A stretch of 64,000 nucleotides of DNA from Clostridia bacterium (GCA_028720145.1 JAQYLJ010000067.1:91890-155889), one strand, 5' to 3'; positions 7,622-53,085 are shown, numbered from the stretch's first letter. Translations and numbers: made by a program. The notes: generated from the sequence alone by a model not told the origin.

Positions 7622-7650
7622 TTGCAATTTTGGTAAAAACGTGGAATAAT
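7622..7650 (+). promoter_or_regulatory. SigA-type promoter candidate for the giant lipoprotein gene
   Basis: TTGCAA (7622-7627), 17-nt spacer, AATAAT (7645-7650) preceded by TGg (extended -10-like). It lies in an AT-rich island 37 nt upstream of the ATG. Confidence 0.4.
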
Positions 7651-7686
7651 ATTATTAATTTTTTATTTTTTATGAGGAGGTCAACC

Positions 7687-17293: not shown

Positions 17294-17386
17294 ATATTAT
17301 AATTATCTAAAATAGGGCGATTGGTCGGCATTTTCCGAAAAAACGGGGGAGATGCCTCACCAAAGACTGAAACAAGGGGGCCTCTT

Positions 17387-19550: not shown

Positions 19551-19556
19551 AAACGG

Positions 19557-22459: not shown

Positions 22460-22471
22460 GGAGGCGGAACA

Positions 22472-33258: not shown

Positions 33259-33290
33259 GCGGGCTGTCCTTTGGGGCAGCCCGCATTTTT
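33259..33290 (+). terminator. Rho-independent terminator ending the plus-strand operon
   Basis: GCGGGCTGTCC / GGGCAGCCCGC stem (one G-U pair), loop TTTG, followed by ATTTTT. Confidence 0.6.
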
Positions 33291-33295
33291 GTATA

Positions 33296-33326
33296 ACGAA
33301 AAGACCTCCCGAGGAGTCGGGAGGTC
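33296..33326 (-). terminator. Rho-independent terminator ending the minus-strand block
   Basis: GACCTCCCGA (33303-33312) pairs with TCGGGAGGTC (33317-33326), loop GGAG. On the minus strand it is followed by TTTTCGTT. Confidence 0.6.
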
Positions 33327-33353: not shown

Positions 33354-36300
33354 TCACTCTGTCAGTTCATGGATTTTCGCGTCGTACTCGTCCCAGTGTT
33401 CCGCCGAGCGATAGGTCTCTGCGGATTTCACATAGATGGAGGGAACGGTTGCGCCCGCAAAAATATTGAACGATTCGTTCTCCGTCGTGGTTGTCACGGT
33501 GTAGTATTCCGCAGTGGGGACATCCGCAGGGGAGTTGATCGTCTTCCAAATCGTCATGTCCAAAAGACCTGTGCAGTACGCGAAGCAGGCACCGCCGAGT
33601 TTGTTGAGAGACGAGCCGCCGTCCCGCGTCCCGAATGTCACATGCGCAAGATTTCTGCATCCGAAGAACGCCATCTCTCCGACTTCCTCAAAGCAAGCGG
33701 GAAGTGCAAGAGATTTGACCGAGGAACGGTAAAACGCCTTTTTCTCAATGACACGCAGATCGGAGTCCGTCGGGAGAATGAACTTCAAGTTGCCGTAGGT
33801 GGAGCCGTTCGCACCAATGTATCTCGTGCCCGCATAGGCAAATGCGCCGGTCCCGATGACCTGAACGGTCGAGGGGAGCGTAACGCTGTCGAGATAGGAA
33901 TAATAGTAGACTTCACCCGTCTCGGAATCTCTTGAACCCCTCAGATAGAACGCGTATGCGGGGATCTTGGTCACGCCCTCTTCAAAAACGACACTTTCCA
34001 GTATGGAGCATTCACTGAACAGATACATACCGAGGTTCCCTCCGACCGAGCCGGGGATCACCGCACTTTCCAGGTTGCTCATCGCGGCAAAGGCGTAGTC
34101 GCCGATTCTCGTCACGGTGTTCGGTACCGTCAGTTCGGTCAGCCCTGTCTGGCAGAAGGCATAGTCATCAATGTAGGTGACCGTTCCGCTCCAGTTGATT
34201 TCCGTAACTTCCGTGAGATAGGCAAACGCAAATTCCCCGATAAAGGTAATCTCTTCGGAGATGGTGAGTTTGCATAGAGAAGTCGGGGTGCAGGAGCGAT
34301 CGCCTGTCGTGTAGGAGAAGGTGCCGTCGGGCTGAATGGAATTGCTCTTGGAGACCGTACCGCCGAAGATATACATCATATAGTCGGTATCCGTGTCGGT
34401 CCGAGAGCCGCCGATGAACGGGACGGTCAGTTCTTCGAGCTGAAGCACGCCTGCAAAGGCACCCTGTTCAATGCGTGTCACCGAAGAAGGAACAACGACT
34501 GCGCGCACCTTCGATTTGTAGAAGGCGCCCGATACAATGGTTTTCACGGCATCGGAGAAAGTCACGCTCTCTTTCGTTTGAGGAACTAAATAGAGTGTGG
34601 TGAGATCCTTGCTGTACAGGCAGTCATCAAATGCGGCATAAGCGGTATTCGCCGGGGGAACGGTAAAGGATGCAATGGAGGCGCAGCCATAGAAGGCACT
34701 GTCACCGATTTTCGTTACCGTTGCGGGAATCGTGATGTCACTTAGCGCGGTGTATGCGAAAGCATATTTCCCGATGGTGCGAACAGAGCCGATACCGTCG
34801 ATGCTTGTAAGACCCGTAAAGCCGTAGAAGGCATAGTCCGGAAGACTATCTCCTATGGAGACGATGCGGACGCTCGTCAGTGTATCGGGCGAGTAGTTAC
34901 CCGCGGACCCGTTCGCTTCCCCGGAGTCGGCACCGAAGTAGTACGCAAGGTAAGGGTTCCCCGAGGGCAGAGAATAGACGGAAAGGGTTTCGAGCGCCTG
35001 CATCCCCGCGAGGGCACCCTTGCGCAGGGTGAGCTCGGGAGAATCGAGCACCAGTACCTTCAAATTGGAATTGCCGTTGAAGGCATAGGGGGCAATCTCG
35101 GTACAACCCGCAGGCAAGGTGAAGGTCGCCTCGTTTTTGTCGCCCGCAACATAGAGGGAGAGACAGTGACCGAACGCACTGTACAGGTTGCCGTCGATGA
35201 CACGGAACAGAGCCGTGTCATTGTCTTCCGAAGGAATCAGATTCGTCAGCGACAGGCAGCCGTTGAGCGCACCCGTACGCAAATCGTTGAGCAAGGCGGG
35301 AATACGGAACTCACGCACCGAGGAACAGCCGGAGAATGCGTATTCACCGATTTCGGTGACGGTGTCGGGCAGTAAAATGGATTCCAGTGCCTCACAGTCG
35401 GAGAACGCGTACCGTCCCACCGCGAGCAGACTGTCGGAGAAAACGACAGACGAGAGACGGCGGCAGCCGGTAAAGGTGTGTTCACGAATCTCATCAAGTC
35501 CCGAGATGTCCCCGATATCGGTCAGTTTCTCACAACCTGCGAATGCAAACGATTCGATTGTCGTACAGGCGGAAGTAAGGTTCACGGTGGTGAGGGAATA
35601 GCAGTCATAGAAAGCGGATGCGCCGACAGACACAACGGTTTTCGGCAGTTGCACCGATTTCACTTGTCTGTTGCCGGCAAAGGCATTCGCGCCGATGGCG
35701 GTCACTTCCGTTCCCTCCCAGGTGGGCGGGACAATGACGGTTCTCTCGCGTCCCGTATAACCCGTGACAACGCCCCCGTCAATTTGGAGACCTTCGGTGT
35801 ACGCCATTCCATACAGCGTGACAGACCCGGTCGAGACTTCGCAGCCGAAGGGTTGCGTCAGGAAGATATCGGAGAACCAGAGGTAGGAAACGCCGTCGTA
35901 GGTCGCGGGCAGGACAGGAGATCCCGCGGGGAAGACCGAGCGAGCCACTTCCGTACCGTCCACGATGCCGATATATTCACCCATACCGTCATTCAGTTTC
36001 CATCCGGCATACAGGGTCATGCTTTCGGTCGGCGCGGCTTGAAAATTGAATTTAGCGGTGCAAGAAACGTTTTTATACCAGCCGCTAAAGGTGTAGCCCT
36101 CTTTGGTGGGGGCGGGGACGGCACTCTCGTTCAGTGTGTCACCCAGGAGCAGAGCTACGGGGGAAACCGCCGTCCCGCCCTTGGTGTCGAAACGGATGAG
36201 GACGGACTCCAGCGGGATCCAGCCGGCATAATAAGTGACATCCTGTGTGACGGGAATGTTCGACGGTGTGACTGCCACGGTCGCGGCGGTATCGGAATAC

Positions 36301-36509
36301 CAGCCACTAAAGGTATAGCCGTAGCGGGTGGGATTTGCGGGGACGGTCGGGGTCTCCCCGCCTTTGAGGGTGACGGTTGTTGCCGCCGCCCCGTCAAGGG
36401 TGTCAAAGGTTACGGTATAGGTCTCTTTCTTCGAGCAGGAAAAGAGGAAAAGTCCTAACACAAGGCAGAGGACAAGCAGAGCCGAAATTCGTAATGCATT
36501 ATTCTTCAT
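33354..36509 (-). CDS. Surface lipoprotein (1051 aa): two Listeria-Bacteroides repeats plus a BspA-type LRR array
   Basis: ATG 36509 gives MKNNALRISALLVLCLVLGLFLFSC (lipobox). YGYTFSGWYSD...YYAGW, EGYTFSGWYKN...LYAGW, then LRR_5-like units. The track start at 36608 is an Arg/Lys-rich extension inside the upstream gene. Confidence 0.88.
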   Translation of the reverse strand: MKNNALRISALLVLCLVLGLFLFSCSKKETYTVTFDTLDGAAATTVTLKGGETPTVPANPTRYGYTFSGWYSDTAATVAVTPSNIPVTQDVTYYAGWIPLESVLIRFDTKGGTAVSPVALLLGDTLNESAVPAPTKEGYTFSGWYKNVSCTAKFNFQAAPTESMTLYAGWKLNDGMGEYIGIVDGTEVARSVFPAGSPVLPATYDGVSYLWFSDIFLTQPFGCEVSTGSVTLYGMAYTEGLQIDGGVVTGYTGRERTVIVPPTWEGTEVTAIGANAFAGNRQVKSVQLPKTVVSVGASAFYDCYSLTTVNLTSACTTIESFAFAGCEKLTDIGDISGLDEIREHTFTGCRRLSSVVFSDSLLAVGRYAFSDCEALESILLPDTVTEIGEYAFSGCSSVREFRIPALLNDLRTGALNGCLSLTNLIPSEDNDTALFRVIDGNLYSAFGHCLSLYVAGDKNEATFTLPAGCTEIAPYAFNGNSNLKVLVLDSPELTLRKGALAGMQALETLSVYSLPSGNPYLAYYFGADSGEANGSAGNYSPDTLTSVRIVSIGDSLPDYAFYGFTGLTSIDGIGSVRTIGKYAFAYTALSDITIPATVTKIGDSAFYGCASIASFTVPPANTAYAAFDDCLYSKDLTTLYLVPQTKESVTFSDAVKTIVSGAFYKSKVRAVVVPSSVTRIEQGAFAGVLQLEELTVPFIGGSRTDTDTDYMMYIFGGTVSKSNSIQPDGTFSYTTGDRSCTPTSLCKLTISEEITFIGEFAFAYLTEVTEINWSGTVTYIDDYAFCQTGLTELTVPNTVTRIGDYAFAAMSNLESAVIPGSVGGNLGMYLFSECSILESVVFEEGVTKIPAYAFYLRGSRDSETGEVYYYSYLDSVTLPSTVQVIGTGAFAYAGTRYIGANGSTYGNLKFILPTDSDLRVIEKKAFYRSSVKSLALPACFEEVGEMAFFGCRNLAHVTFGTRDGGSSLNKLGGACFAYCTGLLDMTIWKTINSPADVPTAEYYTVTTTTENESFNIFAGATVPSIYVKSAETYRSAEHWDEYDAKIHELTE
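33560..35790 (-). repeat. BspA-type LRR array (protein-level)
   Basis: Units such as LPKTVVSVGASAFYDCYSLTTVNLTSACTTIESFAFAGC recur. Confidence 0.75.
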
Positions 36510-39500
36510 GGGTGTCCTCTCCTTTCTTTTCTGCCGTTTCTTCCGAATCTGTCGGAGCGGCTGCCTCGGTCGTATCGGACGGGTCATCGGACGCACTGCC
36601 GTCCGCACGCTGCGATGCGGTCTTTTTCTTTTTGATCACGAGGAGCACGACCGTCACACCGACACCTGCCGTAAGGACGACGGCACCGACCACGATCAGG
36701 ACGATCGCGTAAGTGGGCAGACCGTCGGTCGGACTCTCAATCGGGGGTGTCGGATTGGGGTCATCCGGCGTGTCCGCATTCTGTTCGGCACGGAGTCGTT
36801 TCACCTCGGCGATGGCTCTTTGCAGTTTCGCGACATTTTGGACAAAGGCTTTCTGATCGGAAGAAGTCGCGTTATACATCAGTTCCAGATAGTCCACCGT
36901 TTCCGCATCGGCGAGCGTAATGATTTCGGGGAGGTTCAGGATGCTTTCGTTCAGGGCGGCGGTGCCGTCCGTCATCGAATTGACCTCGGTGCGTCGTGCA
37001 TCTCCCAAGTAGGATTTCCACAGGTAGGTGTCATAGCCTGCCGCGTTCTTGGGTACCGTGATGGTCAGCTGCGCTGCCTTTTCGGCATCGGCATAGTCAT
37101 AGACAAAGTTGCAGTACGACCACCCGTTCACCGCCGCGGAGGAATACAGGCTTTCCAAGGTGGGCGCACCAACGGACAGGAAATCGACAGAGGACAGGGC
37201 AGTACAGCCGTAGAAGGCACCGGCACCGATGGACTTCACCGTGCGGGCAACCGTTACGCTTTCGAGATTGCGGTTGTTGCTGAATGCGTATGCTTCAATC
37301 CGCACGGTCTTATCCAAAACGGTATAGTTCGTATCGGTCTTGCCCGAGGGATAAGCGACAAGCAGGTAGGTGTTGTCGGTCAGTTTTTGATACAGAACAC
37401 CGCAGTCATCCAGGAAGAATCTCTCACTCGCAGGATCAAGCACGATGCTGTCGAGCCATACAAGCGCATCATCCGTGGAGTTGTACGCCTTTGTCGTGAG
37501 GGCGTTCGGCGCCACATAAGTGAGGCTCGCGGGCAGAGAGAGGGAAGAGATCTTGGTGTTGTAGATGGCATAGGAGCCGATGGTTTTGAGGGCGGGGAGA
37601 TCGACAGAGGTAAGAGAACCGGCGTAAGCAAACGCGAGGTCTCCGACCGTCTCACAGGCGGGGAGCGAAACAGAAGAGAGTTTCGTCGCGCGGACGAAGG
37701 CTCCTGTGCCGATATTCACCGCTTTATCGAGCGATACCGAGGTGAGTTCGGTTGCTTCCGCAAAGGCATACGCACCGATTTCGGTCGCGGCAGGCAGGTT
37801 GACCGAGGTGAGAGCGGTCTTTGCAAAGGCATATTCACCCACGGTTTGTACCGTGCGCGCGTCTACGGTTTCAAGAGCTGTACCGACGAACGCATAGTCC
37901 CCGATGGTTTCCACGGCACCGAAAGACAGTGCTTCCAGTTTCTCCGCACCGAAGAAGGCGAATCTGCCGATGGCGGTGACCGCTTCGGGGAGTGTCAGCG
38001 AAACAAGGGAAGTCGCTCCGTAGAAGGCAAAGTCCGGAATCTCCGTCAATCCTTCGGACAGATTCACGGTATCCAGGTTTTCGCACAGAGCAAACGCACC
38101 TTCACCGAGCGCCGTCACGGACGCGGGGAATGTGATGCTCGTCAGCGCCGTATCACCGAAGAATGCGTAGTCGCCGATTTCGGCAACGCCTTCATTCATG
38201 GTAACGGAAGTGAGTGCCGTGCATTCCGCAAACACACCCTCACGGAGTTCGGTGATCCCCGCGGGAATTGTCACAGAGGTGATTCCCGCGTTTTGGGCAT
38301 ACGCATACGCGCCCAAAGATTTCAGACTATCGGGGAGCAGGACGGCGCCGGTCCGATTGCTGTCCGCGAAGGCGTACTCACCAATGGTCTCCACGCCGTC
38401 GGGAACGACAAAGGTCTCCAGGCGGTCGCAGGATGCAAAGGCATAATCACCGATGCGCCTCAGCGAGGTGCCGGGGTAGACTGTCTGAATACCGGAACTC
38501 ATGAATGCGCCCTCGCCGATCTCGGTTACACGGTTGAGGTTGACCGAAATGATGGAGTATACCGTGGAAAGGGCGTAATCACCGATGGTCTTGACCGAAT
38601 CGGGGAGCACAAGTCCCACGATGGACTTGGCAAAGGGACACAGGATCAGTTTCGTCATGTTCTTGTCGTAGAGGATACCGTCCTTTACCGTCAGGTACTT
38701 GCTGCCCTCTTCTACCACGAAGTCGGAGACAAAGACGAGGTAGAACGGGTTTTGACCGACCGAACGGAGGTTGGCATTCGCATTGAAACTGACCGCCTTT
38801 ACATTGCGGCAACCGGCAAAAGCAAAGTCGCCGAGGTATTCACACCCTGCGGGGATATAGACAGAAGTCAGCGCAGAGCAGTTGGTAAACGCGTAGTCGC
38901 CGATATACTTGCAGGACTTTTTGAAGGAGACGTTGGTCAGGGCGCTGGCATAATAGAACGCGGCGGCGTCGATTTCGGTTACGTCGGACTCAAAGATGAC
39001 ATCGGTAAGCCCGGAGCAGTAATAGAACGCGTTTTCTCCGACATAGGTCGCATACAGATTCAGAGAGCGCAGCGAGGAGCACATGGCAAAGGCATAGTCG
39101 GCTATCTTGTTGAGGCTCGAAGTCTTAAGCTCTTCCAGCCCCGTACAGCCTACGAAGCAGTATTTGCCGATCTGCCCAACCGTGCTGATATCCACCGATT
39201 TCAGCGAGGTGCAGAACGAGAACGCACGGTCGCAGATGGTATGGCAGTTCGAGAGATCCAGCTCTTTCAGCGCACTGTCGCCGTAAAACGCCAGTTGACA
39301 GATGGTCTGTACCTGACCGAGGTTGATGATTTCGAGGGATTCGTTATGTCCGAATGCCCACTCGTCGATCTGTTTACAGGTGGAGGGAAGTACGATTTCC
39401 CGCAGATTCTCACAGCCGTAGAAGGCGGCGTATTCGATCTGCTCGACCCCCTCGGGGATGATGACCTTGCGAATGTCTTTGTTGTTGTAGAACGCAAGGC

Positions 39501-42500
39501 GGTAGATTCTCGTCACGCCCTTGTCGGCGGGGATCTCCACGACGCCGTCGGCATCGCCTTTCCCCGTATAGGACTTGAGGTACTGACCGAGATACTCAAA
39601 TTCCTCGGCAATCCCGAAGTTGCAGGTGGCGGAGAACAGGGTCCCCTCTGCCTTTGCCGAGACCAGAGCGGAGCCGGACTCTTTGGCAAACACGGTGCAG
39701 TGATACGGATCGCTCGGATCGGGGGTCAAGGTGATATAGGGAGACCCGTAGGAATCCCAAACGAGATTCGGCAGGGTCGTTGCGTTGTATGGCGCAAAGG
39801 AGGCGTAGAGCTCATAGGTCTCGCCGCGTACCAGGGAGATACGCGTGGCGTTCAGTGTCAGACCGGAGATGGGAATGGTCGTATCCGATGCCTGACCCGA
39901 ACACCGAATGGTAACCTGCGCGGTACTGTTCCCGTCGGGGGTTGCCACGGTGATGATCGCTTCGCCGTTTTTGAGAGGTGTTACAATTCCTCCCTGAACG
40001 GTCGCGACTTCTTCATCGGAAGAGCTCCAAACAAAATCGGTGTAATACACTTCTTTGGGAGAAGTGACGAGGTACTGCGTGGAGAGCAGGTTGATCTGCT
40101 GATAGGGTTTGAGGTTAAAGATAATCTCGTCGCCCTTTTCGGTCGTCTTTCTGCCGTTCTTGATATTCACGGTATCTGCCGTGGATTTTTCCAGCGTCAG
40201 GTCGACGACCGTCCGGTTCTTCGCGTAGTCGTATAGCGTAAATTCAATGTTCTTGGAGCCGGGCGTATCGCCGTCCTTGAGCTTATGCCAGACAGAGGTG
40301 AGGTCGATCGTCACCTTGTTGGAGGTCGCGGCAAGCATATCATCGACGGGGATGAAGCCTTCGATGACCGCCTCGGGGTCAATCGCCACGCCGTTCACGT
40401 CTTTTTCCTCGTAAGTGGACATAAAGTAGCCGGAGAGGAAACGGTTATCGTACACATACAGGTCGAGTAAGTACCGTTCAATGTTGCCTTCCTTGTCTCT
40501 TTCCACACGGAGGTTGGTCTGCTCCATATCCACAACAGGAGCTTCGTTATCAATGTAGAAGGTGAAGGAAAACTCGTTTTTCAGATTGTGCTGTTCTCCC
40601 TCCCAATCCAGCTCACAGGTCATGTTGAACACATATTTGGTGTTGTTGGCAAGACCCGCCGTGGAGGCATCAAATTCCACTTCAATATAGCCGCCCGTTT
40701 GGTTGCCGTTATAATAGGACTTACGGCAGTTCTCGGCGGTCTTTTCAAAGATCACATTCCCCGTGACGGGGTCGACGATCGTCATGTGAACGCTCTTTGC
40801 GTTTCGGAGCAAGCCGGCACTGATGTACTTTAACATGAAGTTCCCGTCGGTGGAAGTGGTGAGTGCACAGTAATCTTCCAGTGTCGCGGGAGCCTCGTAA
40901 CCATCCGCGAGAATGAAGGCGGGCTTGCACATATAATAATAGGAAATTTCGTTTCCGGAATAGAAACCGACCATCGGAATGGTGGCATAGACATCGGCTT
41001 TCAGCTTTTCATCTTCCAGAATGGAGGTATCTTTTGCTTCTTTTCCTTCTTCAAACGCGGTAGCGTCCAGAAGCGGCGCCTTGGTCCAGTCGCCGTAGAA
41101 GGCAAGGTACGGGATCGTGAGATTGGAATCACCGTCCTTGGAAGTGAGGGTGCAGAAGCCCTCGACATACATACCGTTGGCGAAATTGTCATCCATGTAC
41201 TTGCGGTCATTCTCGGAGAGCGTGATCTCTACGGTGATGATCGCTTCACTGTAGCCGAGGACGGATACGGTGTTGCCCACAAGACCGCCGTTCTCCACCG
41301 AGTAGCGAATCTCGGGGGAGAGCATATACGCCTGCTCCGCCACGGTCTTTCCGTCGCTGGAGATCGTCTCGGTCATGGTATACGTGTCGAGAACGTAGGA
41401 GAGAGCGTGGTCGGTGGTATTCTTCAAAGTGAAGACCAGGGTGTACTTACCGGTTTTCTGCGGGTCATCTCCGAGAGAGAGCTTGGCTTTATCCGAGCCT
41501 TCAACGAAAAGATACGCCCCGGACTTAATGGCACGTTCTGCGTCTGCCAGACCGGATCCCTGCTTTCTCGGAGAATAGGGATTGCCCGCTTCATTGCGGA
41601 GGATAGAAGCCGTAGACATGAGGAGGCAGTTCACAAGAGCCGTCACCTCGGAATCGGAGTAAGTGGGATATTTCTGCTTGACATACTGACGGACCAGCGC
41701 GGCAGAGCCGGCGAGGTTCGGGCAAGCCATGGAGGTCCCCGAGAAGACATCATACCCGCCGCGGACGGCAGAGGTGATATCACCGCCGTAGGAGGTGAGG
41801 TCGGGGTTGAGGATCAAGTCGGAGTTCGGACCCCAAGAAGAGAAGTCACTCATAAACGGACCCGCGAGGTTACCCGCGCCGAAGTGGAGGACACCGGTCG
41901 GATGCTCAACAAAATAGGCACCGGCGTCCATGGAGATCGAGCAGGTGGGCAGGGTCGCGTTGGTGATGCTCATACTGATGGTACCGGACACATTGTTATA
42001 GATGATGGCACCGACAGCGCCCTTTGCGGCGGCAATCTGCACCTTTTCTTCAAAGGTCGTGACACCACGCTTGATGATGGCGATCTTACCCGTGACATCA
42101 ATGTTGGCGTAGTTGCCCTCGTTGCCGACACCGGGTACCAATACATATTCATACTGTGCGGTCTCGTTGCCCTTCAGCAGCATATCGTAGAACTCGATAT
42201 CCTTGCCGCCTTTGACGGCTTTCGTCAGATAGACGGGATACTCGCCGTTCACGAGCAGATAGTGCGTTTTCGCTCCGAGCACCGACGCAACCGCCAGAGA
42301 GGAATCATAGGTCGCGGGGGAACCAAGGGTCATGGAGTCGGGATTCGTCTTCAGGTTGGTGTCACCGACATTGGAACCCTTGGCAGAGGAGTGCGAGTTG
42401 GATGCAGCGACAATCAGGTTGATACCCGAGGCACGGACGGCATCATAGACCTCGTTCACGCCCTCTTCATCGGCTGCTCTCGAAAAGCCGCAGGAGGAAC

Positions 42501-43536: not shown

Positions 43537-43590
43537 TTTGTAATCCTTATCGTAATTCAAAAACAGTTTCGCGAAGAAAACGATATGACG

Positions 43591-43869
43591 TTATTTAAAG
43601 TAGAAATACCCGATGACATATACCGCTGCCATCACGCCGAGCACAATCAAAAGATAGGGGAGATATGCCTTGTATGCGGCGAAAATCATGGCTCTTGTTT
43701 CTTTCGCCGTCGGGCGAAACGGGTCTTTTTTTTGCTTTTTCTTTTGCTGTTGGCTGTTTTTTCGGTACCAGGGCATGCCCTCGACATTCATGTCGGCAAT
43801 GACTCTGTCGTCGTCCGAGGGCTGCTCAGGCGTGCCGGTTTCCGGCTTTTCTTTTTTTTCGTCACTCAT
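43591..43869 (-). CDS. Small tail-anchored membrane protein (92 aa), function unknown
   Basis: ATG 43869 overlaps the oppF TGA (ATGA). Charged K/Q/E-rich N-terminal part and one C-terminal TM (YLPYLLIVLGVMAAVYVIGYFYF). Confidence 0.6.
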   Translation of the reverse strand: MSDEKKEKPETGTPEQPSDDDRVIADMNVEGMPWYRKNSQQQKKKQKKDPFRPTAKETRAMIFAAYKAYLPYLLIVLGVMAAVYVIGYFYFK

Positions 43870-44922
43870 GCTTGCACCGTTTTGTTATCTGTTGTCGAAG
43901 GGGCAGCATCTTCGGGTGCCGCGGCGGATTCATGCGTCGTATCTTCCTCCGGCTGAGACCCGCAGAGGAAGCAGGCGACCCGGTGACCGTCACCGAGATC
44001 GGTGAGCGCAGGGCGTTTCTCACGGCAGATATCCATGCACCTGGAACAGCGCGTATGGAACTTACAGCCGGGAGGGCAGTTGATCGGAGAGGGAATATCT
44101 CCGTCCAGCACGATACGGTTCACTTTGACATGGGGATCCGGCACCGGAGCGGCAGACAACAGCGCCTGCGTGTACGGATGAGAGGGCGCATCGAAAATCT
44201 GCTTTTTGGTCCCGATTTCCACAAGAGAGCCGAGGTACATGACGCCCACATGCGTGGAAATGTGCTTGACGACCGAGAGGTCATGGGAGATGAACAGATA
44301 GGTCAGTCCCATCTGAATTTGCAATTCTTTCAGCAGATTGACAATCTGCGCTTGAATGGACACGTCGAGTGCGGAGACAGGCTCGTCGCAAACCACGAAC
44401 TCCGGCTCTACGGCAAGTGCACGCGCGATGCAGATTCTCTGCCGCTGACCGCCGGAGAACTCGTGCGGGTAACGGTCATAGTAAAAATCGCGCAGACCAC
44501 ACTTCTTCATAATGTCGAGGACATATGCGTTGATCTCTTCCTTCGGCACGATCTTATGAATGGCGACCGGCTCGGAAATGATCTCACCGACCGTCATTCG
44601 CGGCGGGAGACTGGAATAGGGGTCCTGAAAGACAATCTGCATTTTACGACGCAGAGGCATCAGTTGCTTTTTGGAATAGTGCGTGATGTCCTTGCCGTCG
44701 TAGATGATTTTGCCGCCGGTAATGTCATGCAGATGAAGAATGGTTCTTCCCAGCGTGGTTTTCCCGCAGCCGGACTCGCCGACAATCCCCAAGGTCGACG
44801 CGCGAGGGACGGAGAAGGACACATCATCGACCGCTTTGAGGTAAGACGACGGCCGTCCGAAGAAGTTCTTATCCGCTACAAAATACTTTTTGAGATGCTC
44901 CACTTGAAGGAGGATATCGTTG

Positions 44923-44933
<11 letters not shown>
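43866..44933 (-). CDS. oppF: Oligopeptide ABC transporter ATP-binding protein
   Basis: Walker A GESGCGKTT, signature FSGGQRQRICIARAL, Walker B FVVCDEPVSALD, and the C-terminal oligopeptide-type Cys motif (CPPGCKFHTRC). ATG 44933 gives MENNNDILLQVEHL. Confidence 0.9.
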
Positions 44934-46233
<1,300 letters not shown>

Positions 46234-46251
46234 AATACAGCCTAGCCTCCG

Positions 46252-47499
46252 TTATCGCTTCATTCTGGGGTCGAGCGCATCGCGCAGACCGTCACCGATA
46301 AAGTTGAACGCGAGGACGGCGAGGACGATGCAAATACCAGCGGGAATCCAAATGTTCGGGTAGTTGCTGAGGATGGTCGGCTTCTTGGCTAGGAAGATGA
46401 TATTCCCCCAAGAGGCTTTCGGATACGGTACACCGAGGTCGAGATATCCGAGCGTTGCTTCGTACAGAATCATGCTGCCGAGAGAGAGCGTCATCGACAC
46501 GATGAGCTGCGGCATAATGTTGGGGACAAGGTGTTTGAAGATTCTTCTTCCGTTCGGAACACCGAGCGCTTCGCACGCCGTCATATATTCCTGCTCACGC
46601 AGGGAGAGGATCTGACCGCGCACAAGACGGGCGGCGCCTGTCCAGGAGATCAGTGTCAATACGCCCATCATAATATAAATATTGAAAGATTTATCAATAT
46701 AAATTGCTTGTGCGTCTTCTCCCTTGGCATTGAACGCCGAGAGGATTGCACTGATAATCAGAAGGATAGGCAGGGTCGGAATACAGTTGATGATATCCAC
46801 GATACGCATGATGAGCATATCGACCCATTTGCCGAAGAACCCTGCGAGACCGCCGAGGACGACACCGAGCAAGGTGTTCACCAGCACGACGAGAAGCGAG
46901 AGAGACAGGGAGATTCTGCCGCCGTACATGAGACGGACAAGCACATCGTAACCCATATCGTCTGTCCCCAAAACGTGGACAGCCTTTTTGCCCTCATGAT
47001 TGACCGACACGGTGAAGCAGGGAGCAAATTTGTTTTCCTGATAGGTATGGATATCGATGCGGACCGCCTCGTATGTATTGCCGTCGGCATCTTGGTAGGA
47101 CACAAGCATCGGGATGACTTCTTCACTGCCCGAGTTCTCATCCACCTCTTGCTCGCCCCATCCGACAAAGATCGGACCGACAAAGCAGAAGAGAAGAAGA
47201 AGAATCATGGTCACAAGTCCGACCATCGACAGGCGGGAACGGAAGAACCGCTGCAACACAAGACGCATCGGGGAAATGATGCGTACATTGTCGGCGAAAC
47301 TCTCTTTTTCCTCGTCGTCTTCGTAAGGGGTTACATCCGCAGAGTCCTCGGTCGGGCAGGCAGTGCCGACCTCTTCGGTTGACGCGCTTACATCGGTTGC
47401 TTCGGTCGCGGCATCTGCCCTGGCGACCGTTTCGGTCAGACTCGTTTTTTTGTCCTGCGAAGGAGCGTCTTGCCCTGCGCTGTTATTGTGCGTACTCAA
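46252..47499 (-). CDS. oppC: Oligopeptide ABC transporter permease with an acidic N-terminal extension
   Basis: BPD-transporter core (LLGVVLGGLAGFFGKWVDMLIMRIVDIINCIPTLPILLII...). TTG 47499 lies 9 nt after AAGGAGG, directly downstream of the oppB stop. An internal ATG (MRLVLQRFF) is an alternative start. Confidence 0.8.
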   Translation of the reverse strand: MSTHNNSAGQDAPSQDKKTSLTETVARADAATEATDVSASTEEVGTACPTEDSADVTPYEDDEEKESFADNVRIISPMRLVLQRFFRSRLSMVGLVTMILLLLFCFVGPIFVGWGEQEVDENSGSEEVIPMLVSYQDADGNTYEAVRIDIHTYQENKFAPCFTVSVNHEGKKAVHVLGTDDMGYDVLVRLMYGGRISLSLSLLVVLVNTLLGVVLGGLAGFFGKWVDMLIMRIVDIINCIPTLPILLIISAILSAFNAKGEDAQAIYIDKSFNIYIMMGVLTLISWTGAARLVRGQILSLREQEYMTACEALGVPNGRRIFKHLVPNIMPQLIVSMTLSLGSMILYEATLGYLDLGVPYPKASWGNIIFLAKKPTILSNYPNIWIPAGICIVLAVLAFNFIGDGLRDALDPRMKR

Positions 47500-47513
47500 T
47501 GTGGCTCTCCTCC

Positions 47514-48506
47514 TTACTTTAACAGTTTGACACGCGGGTCAACCAGCATATAGGCGATATCCGTCAGGAATGTACCGATCACGGTCAGAATCGCCAAAAA
47601 CATATTGTAACCCATAATGAACGGAATGTCACCGGCGGAAAGCGCTTGGTACGCCTTTTGCCCGATCCCTTGCAGAGAGAAGATTTCCTCTGTGATCATT
47701 GCACCGGAGAACAGGCTCGGCAGGGTACCTGCCATCATGGTGACGAGCGGAATCATCGTGTTGCGGAATACATGCTTGTATACGACAGTGTTCTCCGAAA
47801 GACCTTTCGCTCTTGCGGTGCGGATATAGTCGGCATTCAGCACTTCGAGGGTGTTGGTACGCGTGTAGCGCATGAGTCCCCCGATGGAGAGGATGACGAG
47901 TGTCAGCATGGGCAGAATACAGTGCCGCACCTTGTCCATGAAGGCGGCGAACCCCGTATAGTCGGCGGTCGCATCCACCAGACCCTGCATCGGCAGCCAT
48001 CCGAGGTCCACACCGAATACCTTGATCAGAAGTGAGCCCAAAAAGAACGATGGCAAAGATATACCGATCATCGACAGCACCGTGACGAGGTAGTCGGACC
48101 ACCCGTACTGGTGCGTGGCGGAATAGATGCCGAGAGGAATGGCAATGATGAACTCGAGAACCAGAGCAACTGCGGAAATCGCGAACGAGATCCACATATA
48201 TGTAGTGATCACGGTGGACACCTTGTCATTGAATTTGAAGGAGATGCCCAAGTCACCTTTTAGGGCACTGGTGAGCCACCCCCAATAGCCTTTCAAAATC
48301 CCCGTAAAGGAATTGTCGTAAAGACCATAGAGTTTCAGCATGGCGTCAATGTCTTCCTGACTGACGGTTCCCTGATCGATCTGGGAACGGAACTTCTGCG
48401 TGACGAAATCGGTGGGGAGAAGGCGCACAAGGAAATAAATAATCAGCGAAACGCAGAAGAGAATCAGTATGGAATACAGTAGGCGTTTGATGATGTATTT
48501 TGTCAT
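47514..48506 (-). CDS. oppB: Oligopeptide ABC transporter permease
   Basis: MTKYIIKRLLYSILILF... is the typical OppB/DppB N-terminus, with the EAA-like loop YIRTARAKGLSENTVVYKHVFRN. ATG at 48506. Confidence 0.9.
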   Translation of the reverse strand: MTKYIIKRLLYSILILFCVSLIIYFLVRLLPTDFVTQKFRSQIDQGTVSQEDIDAMLKLYGLYDNSFTGILKGYWGWLTSALKGDLGISFKFNDKVSTVITTYMWISFAISAVALVLEFIIAIPLGIYSATHQYGWSDYLVTVLSMIGISLPSFFLGSLLIKVFGVDLGWLPMQGLVDATADYTGFAAFMDKVRHCILPMLTLVILSIGGLMRYTRTNTLEVLNADYIRTARAKGLSENTVVYKHVFRNTMIPLVTMMAGTLPSLFSGAMITEEIFSLQGIGQKAYQALSAGDIPFIMGYNMFLAILTVIGTFLTDIAYMLVDPRVKLLK

Positions 48507-48583
48507 ACTAGCCGGACCTTTCTGATATGGGTAGATGGAAAATGCCGAGAAAAACCATGGGATTACAAAGCACAAAGCGCATT

Positions 48584-48614
48584 GGCACGCGACAGAGGTT
48601 TCCCGCTGCGTGCC
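48584..48614 (-). promoter_or_regulatory. Intercistronic stem-loop between oppA and oppB
   Basis: GGCACGC (48584-48590) pairs with GCGTGCC (48608-48614) in the 166-nt oppA-oppB gap, with no clear T-tract. The position is typical of mRNA-stabilising or attenuating hairpins after SBP genes. Confidence 0.3.
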
Positions 48615-48672
48615 GTTGCGCCCTGTACAAAGGAGTCAAAAAACCGGGTAAAAATGTGCCGAAAAGTATGGA

Positions 48673-51219
48673 TCAGCCTTGGATGAAACTGATTTCCCAA
48701 ATCCGGGAGAAGGGAGATTGGTAAGCGGTCGCTTCGCAAACCGTGCTGGAATCAATGACATCCTTGTTCCAAATAAAGAGATTCTTTCTCTGATAGGTGG
48801 CACATTCGACCGCGAGCTCCATGACAATGTCGAGTGCATCGGAGTAGATCGATTTCCGTTCGTTCTCGTCGATGGTCGCACGACCGTCTTCAATCAACTC
48901 GGCGAGCGTGTCGAGCAGTTCGTTTTCTTCAGCCGTACCTTCTTCCATAATGTAGGGGAAGCCCCAGTTTTTGATCGCAGTGGCGGAGGAATCCTTGTGG
49001 TAGACCTGATACATATCGGGGTCGATGGTCGACGACCATGCGGCAGCCCATACGGCGAGCGTGCCGGCGGAGAGTTTGGAGAGGGCGTTGGCATCCTTGG
49101 TGACCGTGATATCGAAGCCGATGCTGTTCAGCAGGTCAGCCGCCTTTGCCATGGTTCTCCATGCCGGGTGATCCGTCGAGTCGCCCGCGATGGTGAAGGT
49201 GAAAGTGAGTTTATCGCCATTCGCATTTTCCAATTTGCCGGTTTCGGGGTTGATGGAGTATCCCTCGGCGTTGACCTCTTCCAGTGCGGACTGTTTTGCT
49301 TTTTCCTCGTTGAAACTGCCGATGCTGACAATGTTGCCCGATGCATCATAGTTGCAGTCGTAGGATTTCTCGGCATAGTAGGGCAGACAGCCGCGCGGGT
49401 ACGCCCAGTTGTTCGAGGACATGGACCGATACAGTGCGGAGGCGAGAGAGCCGTAGTAATCGACGCAGAGGCTGGTATCCAGGCAGTACATGATGGCGCG
49501 GCGCACCGCGATCTCTTTGACATACTTGGCATTGATACCGATATAACCGTAGCCGAGGTTATCTGCGAGCGCATAGTCGATGCCGGTCGCGTTGTCGATC
49601 TTCTTCATGTTGTCCGGGGTCGCCTGCGGCTCGGAATAGTAGACCTCGGGGTTCGCGCCGGTGACGGCGTTATACATTTGGTCGGTGGAAATGACTTTAT
49701 AGCGAACTTTTCTGATCTTCGCGTTCTTGGAGGTGTCGTTGCCGAAAACGGTGTAGAAGTTGTTGTTTCTTTCAAAATAGACAATGTTGTCACGGAAGAA
49801 ATCGTTCTTTTCGGGGATGGCACCCTCGGCAGCGTAGGCGGTGTTGACATCGGATGCCTTGTAGGGACCTGCACCGACGGGGACCTGTTTCAGCTGCATT
49901 TGCTCAAAGAAATCACTGTCCGCAAAAGAGACACCGAAATGGTTGTTTTCATAGGAGAACTGCGCGATTTCTTCGGGAGTGGAGTAATAACTCATAGGCG
50001 TCACGGTGAAAGAGAAGTTGTAGATTGCCTTCGGGTCAACGCCGTTGACAACAATCTTCAGGATCTCGCATTCCTCGCCGAGGTCGGTGGTCGCACCGCT
50101 GTTGTTGGCGGGGATGGTCGTGCCGCGGGTCAGTGTGATGCCGGAAATGTTGGGCACTCTGAGTGTCTCATACTGCTTGAAGTATTCGGAGATGCAGACG
50201 GACTTGAAGTATTCGCGCAGATTTGCCGCGGTCACGGTGCCGCCGCCGATGATGGACAGGAGATTGCTCTTGTAGGACGAGAGAACCGCGGTGCCCATAT
50301 AGGCGTTATACACCGTTTCGATCATGCTTTCCTTGGAGTGGTCCAGCTTCTGTGTATCGTTGTAATCCACGGTGTACTTGGTGGTGAAGTTGCCGGTTAC
50401 GGGGTCTTTTTCCTTCTCGGTCTTTACCGTAATCAGTCCTTCCATGTAGAGGAAGACCTGCCAAGTTTCGGTGAATCCGTACTTCTCGTAGGAATCTTTG
50501 GAGGAGTCTGCGGATGCCCAGTCGGAGGTCAGCTCTTCACGGAAGAGGCTGTTCGTCTTCTCGATGACCTCGTTCTGACGGGCGGTCAGTGCGCCGAGAG
50601 GCGCCTGCTCGTCTTTGCACCAAGCGATGACCTCGTTGATACGGGCGACTGCCTGTGCGGCAAAGGTCGCGTCCAACTGATCCTGCTCGTTTTCGTTGTA
50701 GGTTTGTGCGCGGTACGCTTTCAGTCCTTTGATATTGACCGAGTACAGGGTAGAAGAGCCGGTGTAGCTCGGATCCAGGAGCGTGTAGAGATTAAAGAGG
50801 ACATCTTTACCGGAGAGCGTCTCACCGTTCGAGAACTTGATGCCGTTCTTAATGGCAAAGCTGTATTCGGTATAATAGTCGTCATAGTTTTGGCTGATCT
50901 CGTATGCTTCTTTGGAGCCGTATGTAACGACGGAGTAGTTCAGAGCGACGCAGTCCTCGTCCTTGCCGCAGGACAGTTTGCCGTTCTTATCGGTGTTCAG
51001 CATCCCGATCTGGGTGAGCGAAACAACCGACCCGTCGGCACCGCTCGTGTAGAAGAACGGGTTAAACACGCCGTCGAGCGCCTCGCTCGCCAGGACGAGA
51101 GGCGTTTCTTCGTTGGAATAGCCTGCATTTTTCTTCTTCTTCTTGCAAGAGGTAACGATGGGAAGCACGGCGCATACAACCAGCACCAGGCACAGTACCT
51201 TAATCAGTGTTTTCTTCAT
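48673..51219 (-). CDS. oppA: Oversized family-5 (OppA-like) peptide-binding lipoprotein (848 aa)
   Basis: Lipobox LPIVTSC followed by KKKKK. SBP_bac_5-like stretches (e.g. VGAGPYK...NDFFRDNIVYFERNNNFY). Sits immediately upstream of oppBCDF. Confidence 0.8.
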   Translation of the reverse strand: MKKTLIKVLCLVLVVCAVLPIVTSCKKKKKNAGYSNEETPLVLASEALDGVFNPFFYTSGADGSVVSLTQIGMLNTDKNGKLSCGKDEDCVALNYSVVTYGSKEAYEISQNYDDYYTEYSFAIKNGIKFSNGETLSGKDVLFNLYTLLDPSYTGSSTLYSVNIKGLKAYRAQTYNENEQDQLDATFAAQAVARINEVIAWCKDEQAPLGALTARQNEVIEKTNSLFREELTSDWASADSSKDSYEKYGFTETWQVFLYMEGLITVKTEKEKDPVTGNFTTKYTVDYNDTQKLDHSKESMIETVYNAYMGTAVLSSYKSNLLSIIGGGTVTAANLREYFKSVCISEYFKQYETLRVPNISGITLTRGTTIPANNSGATTDLGEECEILKIVVNGVDPKAIYNFSFTVTPMSYYSTPEEIAQFSYENNHFGVSFADSDFFEQMQLKQVPVGAGPYKASDVNTAYAAEGAIPEKNDFFRDNIVYFERNNNFYTVFGNDTSKNAKIRKVRYKVISTDQMYNAVTGANPEVYYSEPQATPDNMKKIDNATGIDYALADNLGYGYIGINAKYVKEIAVRRAIMYCLDTSLCVDYYGSLASALYRSMSSNNWAYPRGCLPYYAEKSYDCNYDASGNIVSIGSFNEEKAKQSALEEVNAEGYSINPETGKLENANGDKLTFTFTIAGDSTDHPAWRTMAKAADLLNSIGFDITVTKDANALSKLSAGTLAVWAAAWSSTIDPDMYQVYHKDSSATAIKNWGFPYIMEEGTAEENELLDTLAELIEDGRATIDENERKSIYSDALDIVMELAVECATYQRKNLFIWNKDVIDSSTVCEATAYQSPFSRIWEISFIQG

Positions 51220-51261
51220 ATTATTATATCTCCTTCAGATAATAATCGGGTAGGAAAGGGT

Positions 51262-52377
51262 TTATTCGGTCTCGGTCGGAGCCGGGATTTCCGTCACGGT
51301 GACGGTTGCGGTCACCGTATCAAGAGAGATATCTGCGGGGACGTAGCCGAAGATATCACCGATCTCCAAAAGACCTTCCAGATCTTTGCCGTAGCAACAG
51401 TAGGTGAGTGCGCCGGTGATCTGAACATTGGTGAAGGTCGCGCCTGTTTCGGCAGATCCTGCAAGCATACCGATCTGACTGATCAAGTTGTTTTGCGTAT
51501 CGCTCAAATCCACTCGGACGTTGACATCGGCAAAGGTAATGTTTTCAAAAACAGCCGTGCGGAGAATCTTGCCGAACAGACCGTAATACTCCGAGTTTCT
51601 GGTCTGCGTGCGGGTCACATGGATGCCGCTGACGGTATGTCCGTTTCCGATAAAGCGCCCCGAATAGGTGTCGGGCATGCTGATATTCGTGTCGGAGAGA
51701 TCCACATCGGCGTCAATATAATAGTTTACGCCGGGGCGGATGGCATTCCCGAAATCGGATGCTTTGCGGACAATGGTGTAGTTGCCCTCGAGGTACCGTG
51801 CATAGACGGTGACAGTCGGATTCTCCGTGCTGACCGCGGGCGTATAGGGGAAGGTGACGGGGGTTGTGAATGCGGGATCCTCATAGAATCCGTAGAAGGT
51901 GTGTCCCGTCCAACTTGCCTGTCGGAAAGAGTTGAGCGGGGTATCTGCGTTGACCTCCAAAGAGTAGGACTGCTCGAACCGATCACCGTACAGGACCTTA
52001 ACGGCATAGTCCGGTTTCCATCTCGTATACAGCGTAATGTCCTCGGTGACGCGATCGGTCGAGAAATTCCAGTCGCGCTCGTTCCCGTCGGCATCCTTGA
52101 CATAGTAGCCGTCCACATGGTGACCGGCAAGGACGGGGGCGGAGGTGGTCGGCTTGGAAGTCGTTACACCGAGTTCCGGTAAAAGAGAGTTTTGAGGAAC
52201 GAGGTACAAAAGCGAACTCTTCCCATCCACCAGTCCGTCGCCGAAGTCATATACGACGCGGCAGGTAAACCCTTTCTCCGCGTACTTATCAAAGACATCG
52301 TCGTTGTTGCCGCACGCCGCGAGGCAGGGCAACAAAAGACAGAGCAAAATTGCAACAAAAGTAATCTTGACTTTCAT
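51262..52377 (-). CDS. Lipoprotein with two Listeria-Bacteroides-like repeats and a beta-rich C-terminal domain
   Basis: Lipobox LLPCLAAC. GHHVDGYYVKDADG...ITLYTRW and WTGHTFYGFYEDP...VTVYARY. The C-terminal half (YYGLFGKI..., IGMLAGSAETG) weakly resembles GLUG or beta-helix regions. Confidence 0.8.
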   Translation of the reverse strand: MKVKITFVAILLCLLLPCLAACGNNDDVFDKYAEKGFTCRVVYDFGDGLVDGKSSLLYLVPQNSLLPELGVTTSKPTTSAPVLAGHHVDGYYVKDADGNERDWNFSTDRVTEDITLYTRWKPDYAVKVLYGDRFEQSYSLEVNADTPLNSFRQASWTGHTFYGFYEDPAFTTPVTFPYTPAVSTENPTVTVYARYLEGNYTIVRKASDFGNAIRPGVNYYIDADVDLSDTNISMPDTYSGRFIGNGHTVSGIHVTRTQTRNSEYYGLFGKILRTAVFENITFADVNVRVDLSDTQNNLISQIGMLAGSAETGATFTNVQITGALTYCCYGKDLEGLLEIGDIFGYVPADISLDTVTATVTVTEIPAPTETE

Positions 52378-52435
52378 GTAACAGGGGTTCCTTCACGAAA
52401 ATATCTAAAACGCCGCAAAAGCATTTATGCTATAC

Positions 52436-52464
52436 ATAATAACATAAAATATCTAATTTGTGAA
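52436..52464 (-). promoter_or_regulatory. SigA-type promoter candidate for the lipoprotein-opp-protease block
   Basis: On the minus strand: TTCACA (52464-52459), 17-nt spacer, TATTAT (52441-52436), about 60 nt upstream of ATG 52377. Confidence 0.4.
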
Positions 52465-53006
52465 GTCTTTTCGTGACATTATTTCACTGAATTGTAAAAA
52501 AACGCAGAAGAGGGACGAACAAGAAAAAAAGCATACAAATACCTTTGAAATGAAAGCGGGAAATTGGGCAAAATGCAGATACGGTTTTTCCTCGGCTCTT
52601 GATTTTGCGTGAGGTCCGGCAAGCGTATCGAGGGGAAATGCGTCATACGCGGTTCTTTGCCGACAGCAGAGGGGGCGGCATCCTGGGACAAATCGAAAAA
52701 ACGGCGAGATGGAATACCGCCGGAAAACAGGTCGCTCGGGAAAGCCGTTCTCTCTGCCGGAAATAATGGGTTTTCACGGGGCGCCGCCTTGTAATCCGGG
52801 CTTCTCGTTGAGAAACGGTCTTGAAACACATTCCTTGTCACGGAGAAGCATTTCGGGCGAAGTAAGAAAAAACATACGCCCGCAATCGTAGACGTTTGTC
52901 GGGTCGAGGCATCGTTTCGGGAAAGGAAAAACGGAAGACGGCTATCAAAGAAGGGTAACGATCTGTTTTGCGCGTCGGAGAGACAGATTTACCGTAAAAA
53001 GACAAG

Positions 53007-53041
53007 AAAACAGGCGCAAGCGATTCGCTTGCGCCTGTTTT
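53007..53041 (-). terminator. Rho-independent terminator after the helicase-loader gene (A/T flanks on both sides)
   Basis: CAGGCGCAAGCG (53011-53022) pairs with CGCTTGCGCCTG (53026-53037), flanked by AAAA and TTTT. On the minus strand it is followed by TTTTCTTGTCTTTTT. Confidence 0.7.
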
Positions 53042-53085
53042 CCCAAAAGCGTCACCCGCAACGCGTGTTTTTCCTATCGGACGCT

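Follow-up and report, generated by a model that had tools for sequence, protein, structure and literature searches.

The DNA considered here, a stretch of 64,000 nucleotides (nt) from a Clostridia bacterium (GCA_028720145.1, JAQYLJ010000067.1:91890-155889) which is called the window in the following, carries nine consecutive co-directional genes on its minus strand (33354-52377), as seen from the list of open reading frames (ORFs) and a Pfam scan. In 5' to 3' direction these genes encode a repeat lipoprotein, a substrate-binding protein (SBP), the permeases and ATPases of an Opp-type importer (OppB, OppC, OppD, and OppF), a small membrane protein, a giant S8 proteinase with leucine-rich repeats (LRRs) and a further lipoprotein with LRRs. 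A first-pass annotation had placed the nine genes between a promoter-like site and a terminator, and had read the block as a system for the capture, cleavage, and import of proteinaceous substrates. The gene content and both boundary elements were borne out. The functional reading is likewise supported, as the S8-LRR and Opp genes are co-directional neighbors in 64 of 69 informative loci from related genomes, with two permuted gene orders being found among them.

The nine genes and their products

The block comprises the following features, with lengths of proteins given in amino acids (aa) and transmembrane abbreviated as TM:

53003..53045, minus strand: terminator that ends the upstream dnaB/dnaI-like operon, with a stem of 20 bp and a T-run behind it; upstream limit of the block
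52436..52464, minus strand: promoter-like site, TTCACA, 17-nt spacer and TG-extended TATTAT; score 10/12
51262..52377, minus strand: 371-aa lipoprotein, lipobox LAAC; weak Pfam match to Flg_new
48673..51219, minus strand: cluster-C (family 5) SBP lipoprotein, 848 aa; Pfam SBP_bac_5, 7.3e-23
49804-50754, minus strand: family-specific insertion region of the SBP, aa 156-472, with about 240 extra residues within
48570..48628, minus strand: GC-rich hairpin in the 166-nt spacer between SBP gene and oppB; z = -2.55 against shuffled sequences, weak U-tract after it
47514..48506, minus strand: OppB-type permease; Pfam BPD_transp_1, best NCBIfam match Opp4B, under cut-off
46252..47499, minus strand: OppC-type permease, extended at the N-terminus by a variable acidic segment; Pfam OppC_N and BPD_transp_1
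44923..46233, minus strand: OppD-type ATPase; Pfam ABC_tran in two stretches and oligo_HPY
43866..44933, minus strand: OppF-type ATPase; Pfam ABC_tran and oligo_HPY, start at MENNN giving an 11-nt overlap with oppD
43591..43869, minus strand: 92-aa membrane protein with a single, C-terminal TM helix; 4-nt overlap with oppF
36499..43536, minus strand: giant of the cell-envelope proteinase (CEP) type, 2345 aa from ATG; Pfam Peptidase_S8, PA, fn3_5, Big_2, and LRR_5
41551-42927, minus strand: S8 catalytic domain of the proteinase with inserted PA (Pfam)
about 37111-39663, minus strand: BspA-type LRR_5 array of the proteinase, eight Pfam LRR_5 stretches
36634-36711, minus strand: C-terminal TM anchor of the proteinase, 26-aa helix, aa 2284-2309
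33354..36509, minus strand: 1051-aa lipoprotein, lipobox LFSC; Pfam two Flg_new B-repeats and a BspA-type LRR_5 array
33296..33326, minus strand: intrinsic terminator closing the block, 10-bp stem with 7 GC pairs (33326-33303), then the T-run TTTTCGTTAT

The proteinase begins with a signal peptide (MKNKLTHIICVCLVLIMALQTLILPSFA) and ends with the TM helix and a 44-aa charged cytoplasmic tail, while LPXTG is absent; the enzyme is envelope-tethered, though neither by an LPXTG/sortase nor by an S-layer-type anchor. Peptidase_S8 covers aa 212-670 and is followed by fn3_5 (aa 706-819), with the PA domain (aa 480-548) being inserted between the catalytic His/Asn and Ser. The catalytic residues occur in subtilase order as D221 (LDTGLD), H292 (HGTHVAG), N388, and S610 (SGTSMACP), and all four are intact in 52 out of 52 fully covered homologues. 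Among solved structures, the N-terminal 1250 aa matched the C5a peptidase 7edd (2e-63, aligned over aa 205-865), SpyCEP and a protein designated as 'cell envelope proteinase', the matches covering the catalytic, PA, and first Fn3 domains. In addition, the catalytic part shares 33.9% identity with lactococcal PrtP. By these domain and residue signatures the proteinase falls in the C5a-peptidase/lactocepin branch (MEROPS S8A), and endoproteolysis of external protein is predicted. It also carries the largest LRR array of the nine products, with a Pfam LRR_5 score of 9.7e-174 compared to 4.1e-108 in the LRR lipoprotein, and the LRR parts find the LRR_5-type cell-surface proteins 4gt6 and 4h09 in the PDB.

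The transporter genes comprise all parts of an Opp/Dpp importer (TC 3.A.1.5), namely two BPD_transp_1 permeases, one of them with OppC_N, two oligo_HPY ATPases and a family-5 SBP. OppF scored 416 bits with the NCBIfam dipeptide-ATPase model PRK11308 (cut-off 408). In OppD, an insertion splits the ABC domain, and homologues from related loci align across nearly the whole protein; its NCBIfam matches, to OppD and to the Mycoplasma OppD model MMSYN1_0167 (2.4e-98), are both under cut-off. The split ABC domain scoring on a Mycoplasma model hints at an Opp subtype common to these Clostridia and Mollicutes-like lineages. In the case of OppC, tblastn matches in distant loci start only at about aa 50-75. 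The 92-aa membrane protein has no Pfam or NCBIfam match, and an alignment from seven loci revealed a conserved cytoplasmic motif (DDGRxIAxMNVEGMPWY...PTxKE). Its gene directly follows oppF at the 3' side in both gene orders wherever gene calls were available, and the protein was recovered by tblastn in 37 related loci.

The first-pass annotation had named the SBP gene oppA; its family-5 product is about 300 aa longer than classical OppA or AppA owing to its insertion. The best profile match in the PDB was AppA of Bacillus subtilis (7.7e-20). Likewise, a structure model (AlphaFold2, pLDDT 88.8) found AppA in complex with a nonapeptide as top match in Foldseek (1xoc, 4.6e-22, TMt 0.81) and also matched the folds of OppA and DppA, with the identity across the structural alignment being only 12-13%. 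The insertion is located between segments aligning to AppA residues 118 and 195. In a search of 1.8 billion representatives, the insertion region matched only proteins of about 810-1050 aa and shorter fragments, always at the same position and with the marginal match P0331 as exception; the insertion is thus specific for this family. As binders of nickel, glutathione, and EDTA score nearly as well as AppA, profile and fold searches do not distinguish peptide binders from those of nickel or other ligands. A peptide ligand is suggested by the genomic context, the top matches being the nonapeptide binder AppA, and the conserved partnership with a predicted endoprotease makes peptides the simplest reading.

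Two Flg_new domains resembling InlB B-repeats make up the 371-aa lipoprotein together with a short beta-helix at its C-terminus, for which the alignment showed the motifs GNGHT, YGLFG, and IGxLAG. Its AlphaFold2 model (pLDDT 87.8) retrieved binding modules only, such as the InlB B-repeat and YwfG, by Foldseek. According to tblastn, the gene immediately ahead of the SBP gene encodes a homologue in most loci covering that flank, at identities of 21-63% and with some of the matches being partial. A role of this lipoprotein as PrtM-like maturase or enzyme was considered and rejected, since it consists of B-repeats and a beta-helix and gave no match to a catalytic fold. The gene of the 1051-aa lipoprotein overlaps the stop of the S8 gene by 11 nt and has its ribosome-binding site (AAAGGAGAGG) within the S8 3' end, and its product shares 27% identity with the LRR region of the proteinase. 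The best NCBIfam model for the LRR parts of both proteins is adhesin_HupY, in each case under cut-off. A Flg_new+LRR lipoprotein beside S8 was found only in the B+L-order sub-clade (SBP identity of about 37% or more) and in the clade of the window. Accordingly, this separate lipoprotein is regarded as accessory. Of the LRR modules which had been counted to the unit, the array of the protease is conserved, whereas the separate LRR lipoprotein is limited to the sub-clade.

Concerning the layout, all eight junction spacings given in the first-pass annotation (42, 166, 14, 18, -11, -4, 54, and -11 nt) hold with biologically sensible start codons. The block shows the architecture of an operon: its genes point in one direction, are separated by short distances or overlap, and have a single promoter-like site ahead and a single terminator behind. 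The genes upstream of it match the DnaB_2 and IstB/DnaA-type ATPase families. The promoter scan by itself is at chance level, with 14 sites compared to 11.9 expected. Both hexamers of the promoter-like site are kept in four related species (L001, L009, L010, and L011) while the DNA further upstream diverges, and it is this conservation, together with the position, which makes the site credible. On the other side, the convergent gene 28189-33240 ends at a terminator of its own (33259-33284). Approximately 540 nt of non-coding DNA (52479-53000) separate the upstream terminator from the promoter-like site; the sole ORF therein (52479-52841, 120 aa, GTG start) is unconvincing, and the spacer features neither an Rfam family at threshold nor a contig from eight metatranscriptomes. 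The window as a whole contains no Rfam family at gathering score and no tRNA. Upstream of the block, only a sub-threshold match to CsrC occurred, which sits on the terminator hairpin, and a CodY box was not found with three mismatches allowed.

Conservation of the cassette in related loci

More than 1700 homologues of the SBP with lengths of about 820-910 aa were found, all of them from metagenome-assembled genomes (MAGs) or metagenomes. A scan of GTDB with one genome per species revealed at least 594 relatives, of which the best 80 were taken further. Together with six metagenome loci, these were surveyed for linkage by tblastn with the window proteins in 10-kb flanks. Presence and absence are hence tblastn calls, and taxon labels and bin purity of the MAGs are uncertain. 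The survey for S8-LRR genes beside opp was positive: in 64 of the 69 loci with enough flank, the CEP catalytic region lies on the same strand as the SBP gene and within 10 kb of it, with 28 loci having it downstream and 36 having it upstream. The informative loci cover a range of 36-81% in SBP identity and of 28-63% in G+C content. The metagenome neighborhoods, with SBP identities of 44-77%, all carry the parts of the cassette (6/6). The two closest ones feature the same order as the window (lipoprotein, SBP, OppBCDF, small ORF, S8), and in the four more distant ones the parts are circularly permuted (S8, LRR lipoprotein, lipoprotein, SBP, OppBCDF, small ORF), with the flanking genes varying between loci. 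On a neighbor-joining tree of the SBP, which was calculated without support values, the loci changed between the two orders at least three times. Moreover, the identities of SBP and S8 are correlated (Spearman 0.59, p = 3e-7). That the genes stayed linked through repeated rearrangements speaks for a functional unit of long standing and against chance adjacency. As defined by these homology searches, the conserved core is made up of the S8-LRR giant, the B-repeat lipoprotein of about 370 aa, the SBP, OppBCDF and, usually, the small membrane protein.

The carriers are labeled as Christensenella-like, other Clostridia, Acholeplasmatales, Mollicutes, and Anaeroplasma-like MAGs. The cassette was found in dozens of species-level MAGs, their sources being humans, pigs, ruminants, rabbits, chickens, and mice. 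In a MAG from rabbit gut (CANRFW), two complete cassettes occur (L045 and L062), each with an upstream S8 gene and with SBPs that are 49% identical. Another MAG (CANRFK) features a full cassette (L016) besides an orphan SBP paralogue (L022) at 56% identity. This orphan type was found again in L040 (82% mutual identity), where opp genes are absent within 10 kb. For both pairs of paralogues, L045/L062 and L016/L022, contamination of the bin is possible. Five of the 69 loci are without S8; three of them belong to one clade, one represents an orphan SBP paralogue, and one might have its S8 gene outside the flank. The MAGs of the S8-less loci L025, L051, and L028 are labeled as Clostridia or Candidatus Scatosoma, and in L025 and L051 the cassette adjoins genes of histidine and serine biosynthesis.

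The dependence between the two halves is one-sided, i.e., S8 accompanies the SBP family, whereas S8 also occurs without opp. Locus L091 (10001-18629 and 19486-25053) offers an opp-unlinked example. A shorter S8-LRR protein of 1695 aa is encoded there and followed by an overlapping LRR_5 protein gene, after which comes another S8/PA protein that matches dockerin weakly. The pair of an S8 gene followed by an LRR gene looks like a sub-module by itself.

Expression and competing readings

The uncultured strain of the window originates from pig gut, and one DNA run holds 100% of the sampled words of the window. In eight pig-gut metatranscriptomes, about 95 short (150-450 nt) contigs of low depth were found across every gene of the block (33516-52369). 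The region 52370-53000 yielded zero contigs, where about four would be expected at uniform coverage as estimated from contig number and length, in agreement with a 5' boundary close to the predicted promoter. Contigs bridge the overlap of oppF and the small ORF as well as the junction of oppB and oppC. A further contig (48562-48815) runs from the 3' end of the SBP gene into the SBP-oppB spacer and stops short of oppB. A strong hairpin directly 3' of the SBP gene occurs in seven out of seven relatives with unrelated sequences, and this structure is probably a partial terminator or a stabilizer of the mRNA 3' end. A hairpin behind the SBP gene is the usual arrangement by which the message of a binding protein is kept above that of the membrane components. 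Its conservation makes graded rather than uniform expression probable. The block had been proposed to form a single expression unit. Spacing, overlaps, the one conserved promoter-like site, and the one terminator are consistent with a single transcript, though in view of the conserved hairpin its expression is probably graded.

On the basis of gene content and linkage, the block probably encodes an operon-based protein-harvesting system of a Gram-positive gut anaerobe. The membrane-anchored protease of the lactocepin/C5a-peptidase type with its LRR array would cleave external proteins at the cell surface, the 848-aa lipoprotein SBP would capture the oligopeptides, and OppBCDF would import them. 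The lipoprotein of about 370 aa with its B-repeats and beta-helix would probably serve as an accessory for substrate binding or scaffolding, and the second lipoprotein of the sub-clade with B-repeats and LRRs probably has the same accessory role. The small membrane protein encoded after oppF would be part of the transporter half of the cassette. One promoter would read the block, with the hairpin behind the SBP gene probably keeping the message of lipoprotein and SBP in excess over that of the membrane components. Gene content, domain identities, the intact active site, and the persistent linkage are observed in the sequences, while peptide as the ligand, the roles of the binding modules, and the transcript structure are inferred.

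Several observations weigh against this protein-harvesting reading. With regard to expression, none of the sparse RNA contigs spans the junctions small ORF/S8 and S8/LRR; carry-over of DNA into the RNA libraries is possible as well, and the hairpin could be a real terminator or internal promoters could exist. As to the proteinase, none of the nine genes encodes a rotamase or PrsA domain and thus a maturase of the PrsA/PrtM type. In L025, L028, and L051, the series of lipoprotein, SBP, OppBCDF, and small ORF is kept with no S8 gene within 10 kb. Conversely, four shorter S8/PA/fn3_5 relatives (1294-1695 aa) are solitary and without opp genes, so this protease family can do without the transporter. 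In streptococci, the targets of family members are chemokines and complement of the host instead of food protein. The SBP adds further doubt, as NikZ, NikA, and other non-peptide family-5 SBPs follow AppA closely in Foldseek, and a single-sequence search of the PDB returned nothing, with no classical OppA being significant.

Some of these points lead over to a locus for interaction with the host or its surfaces. Comparable to ScpA, to SpyCEP, or to the activity of lactocepin on chemokines, the LRR protease would here degrade defense or mucosal proteins (complement, chemokines, IgA, mucin-associated proteins) and the lipoproteins would be adhesins, with Opp being linked only for the scavenging of by-products or for co-regulation. 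This would agree with the best solved relatives, which are the C5a peptidase of streptococci and SpyCEP, a protease of chemokines, with the sub-threshold matches of the LRR parts to the adhesin model HupY/LrrG, with the presence of other giant BspA-LRR/Flg_new surface proteins untied to transport in the window and with the origin of all carriers from animal or human guts. Nevertheless, a pure host-interaction function leaves unexplained why the protease was retained beside nearly every member of a specialized SBP/Opp family through rearrangements, and it appears unlikely, although the two roles are not mutually exclusive. Quite improbable is a non-peptide ligand, e.g., a nickel chelate, opine, oligosaccharide, or glycopeptide, with the protease having an unrelated role or maturing the surface proteins encoded next to it. 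NikZ, NikA, GbpA, and EppA nearly equal AppA in the fold search, the SBP has its family-specific insertion, and every NCBIfam match of the Opp components except OppF is under the curated cut-off. Still, a nonapeptide binder comes first in both the sequence and the fold search, peptides most simply explain the conserved partnership with a predicted endoprotease, and in the six neighborhoods no gene related to metals, opines, or sugars is conserved in the cassette.

Opp systems of Bacillota also import processed signaling peptides and murein peptides, so a specific peptide might be processed and imported, either as a signal, in cell-wall recycling, or from proteins of LRR-bound neighbor cells. 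The carriers include lineages of low G+C content labeled as Acholeplasmatales or Mollicutes, which may depend on neighbor cells. This is opposed by the lack of a conserved regulator (RNPP-type or other), precursor-peptide gene, or murein enzyme within the cassette in the six neighborhoods; moreover, a CEP-type enzyme of about 2300 aa would hardly be expected as dedicated protease for signal processing, which renders such a function very improbable. Finally, an ordinary opp operon might lie beside a protease gene by coincidence in a genome rich in LRRs, for which three other large LRR_5 or Flg_new genes in the window unrelated to transport could be cited. As the pair remains co-directional within 10 kb in all but five of the informative loci, from varied species, with varied flanks and in two permuted orders, chance adjacency is effectively refuted and next to no weight is left for it.

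Going beyond the preferred protein-harvesting system, a tentative and rather doubtful extension is that the nine products form one physical surface machine as a Gram-positive, protein-handling counterpart of the 'utilisome' in Bacteroidota. In such a machine, the SBP insertion and the B-repeat lipoproteins may dock on the LRR stalk of the protease, and peptides may pass straight from the active site to the transporter instead of diffusing off. The small membrane protein may couple the cytoplasmic tail of the protease to OppBCDF, and divergent paralogous cassettes per genome may stand for different protein specificities, as polysaccharide utilization loci (PULs) do for glycans.

Outside the block, the window encodes four extra LRR_5/Flg_new surface proteins on the plus strand, i.e., a 3183-aa protein with 23 LRR_5 stretches and Flg_new (7537-17088), a 380-aa Flg_new protein (17321-18463), a 945-aa LRR_5 protein (25285-28122), and a 1683-aa Flg_new protein (28189-33240). 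None of them adjoins a transporter, and their number indicates a genome heavily invested in BspA-LRR and B-repeat surface proteins. Between these Flg_new and LRR_5 genes and on the same strand, a Bat-like operon is located (18510-25351, plus strand; MoxR-type AAA_3 ATPase, DUF58, BatA/VWA, VWA), for which a role in folding or assembly of the adjacent surface proteins is conceivable. Further downstream, a 1072-aa fusion of ABC ATPase and FtsX permease is encoded (60214-63432, plus strand), resembling MacB in a single polypeptide. In addition, long antisense ORFs of up to 2393 aa occur (36508-40236, 48679-52182, and 41407-42804 on the plus strand, 9832-17013 on the minus strand). These were rejected as genes and are best read as shadow ORFs that result from the codon composition of the giant genes and could mislead gene callers.

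Significance and comparison with known systems

The acquisition of nitrogen by uncultured gut Bacillota and their share in colonic protein breakdown are poorly understood. The cassette provides a recognizable genetic marker for a route from protein to peptide to uptake and a candidate locus by which proteolytic capacity might be predicted in metagenomes. Moreover, it gives functional context to the abundant, mostly uncharacterized BspA-type LRR and Flg_new modules and offers defined partners for testing the long-standing idea of a direct hand-over of peptides from CEP to OppA. If the nine products were indeed a physical complex with paralogous specificities, it would represent a protein-feeding analogue of PULs in Gram-positive bacteria. 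In a full-text literature search, no account of this cassette and no term like 'protein utilisation locus' was found.

The system resembles PrtP and Opp of lactic acid bacteria, in which an S8 proteinase with inserted PA and subsequent Fn3-like domain yields oligopeptides and Opp with its lipoprotein SBP imports them. For Lactococcus lactis, a hand-over of peptides from PrtP to OppA was proposed (PMC7783315). The first-pass annotation had stated that the genes of lactic acid bacteria are not organized as one unit, and this contrast holds in the one example checked, the lactococcal plasmid pAH1-1. There, prtP is flanked by a divergent prtM of the prsA type and by insertion sequence (IS) elements, with no opp within 20 kb. 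While the lactococcal genes are separate, the block of the window joins both halves co-directionally and is conserved in this form across many species. The proteinase of the window has a C-terminal TM anchor instead of the LPXTG of PrtP and a BspA-type LRR array as stalk in place of the A, B, H, and W domains. Furthermore, the block is without a PrtM-like gene, its SBP is about 300 aa longer, and two B-repeat lipoproteins as well as a small membrane protein are added. Six features are new in relation to PrtP and Opp: the two halves are genetically joined in a conserved manner, the proteinase has a TM anchor and an LRR stalk, the SBP is enlarged, and accessory lipoproteins as well as a small membrane protein are present.

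The best solved homologues of the proteinase are ScpA/ScpB and SpyCEP (ScpC), with matches of 2e-63 to 1e-52 and the same order of the catalytic triad. These streptococcal enzymes act as virulence factors on a narrow range of host substrates, are anchored by LPXTG and are not known to be encoded together with a transporter. The protein of the window, in contrast, additionally features Big_2 and LRR_5 and sits in an Opp operon. Its LRR_5 repeats are of the same type as in BspA, LrrG, and HupY, although the window combines the array with a protease in one gene and with InlB-type B-repeats in the other. The SBP shares the cluster-C fold and the lipoprotein anchoring with AppA (1xoc) and OppA of L. 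lactis (3drf etc.), and differs from AppA by an insertion of about 240 residues that is confined to its own family. The Opp of Mollicutes (MMSYN1_0165-0168) is similar by the split ABC domain of OppD and by the occurrence of the cassette in MAGs labeled as Acholeplasmatales, Mollicutes, and Anaeroplasma, though no score of the window reaches the equivalog cut-offs of these models.

In the PULs and SusCD utilisomes of Bacteroidota as well as in RagAB of Porphyromonas gingivalis, surface binders, hydrolase, and a dedicated importer are encoded together, with several divergent copies being possible. The system of the window differs from these by its Gram-positive background, by an ABC instead of a TonB-dependent importer and by another class of substrate, and there is no homology between them. 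Nevertheless, the one MAG with two cassettes, the SBPs of which share 49% identity, recalls the multiplicity of PULs.

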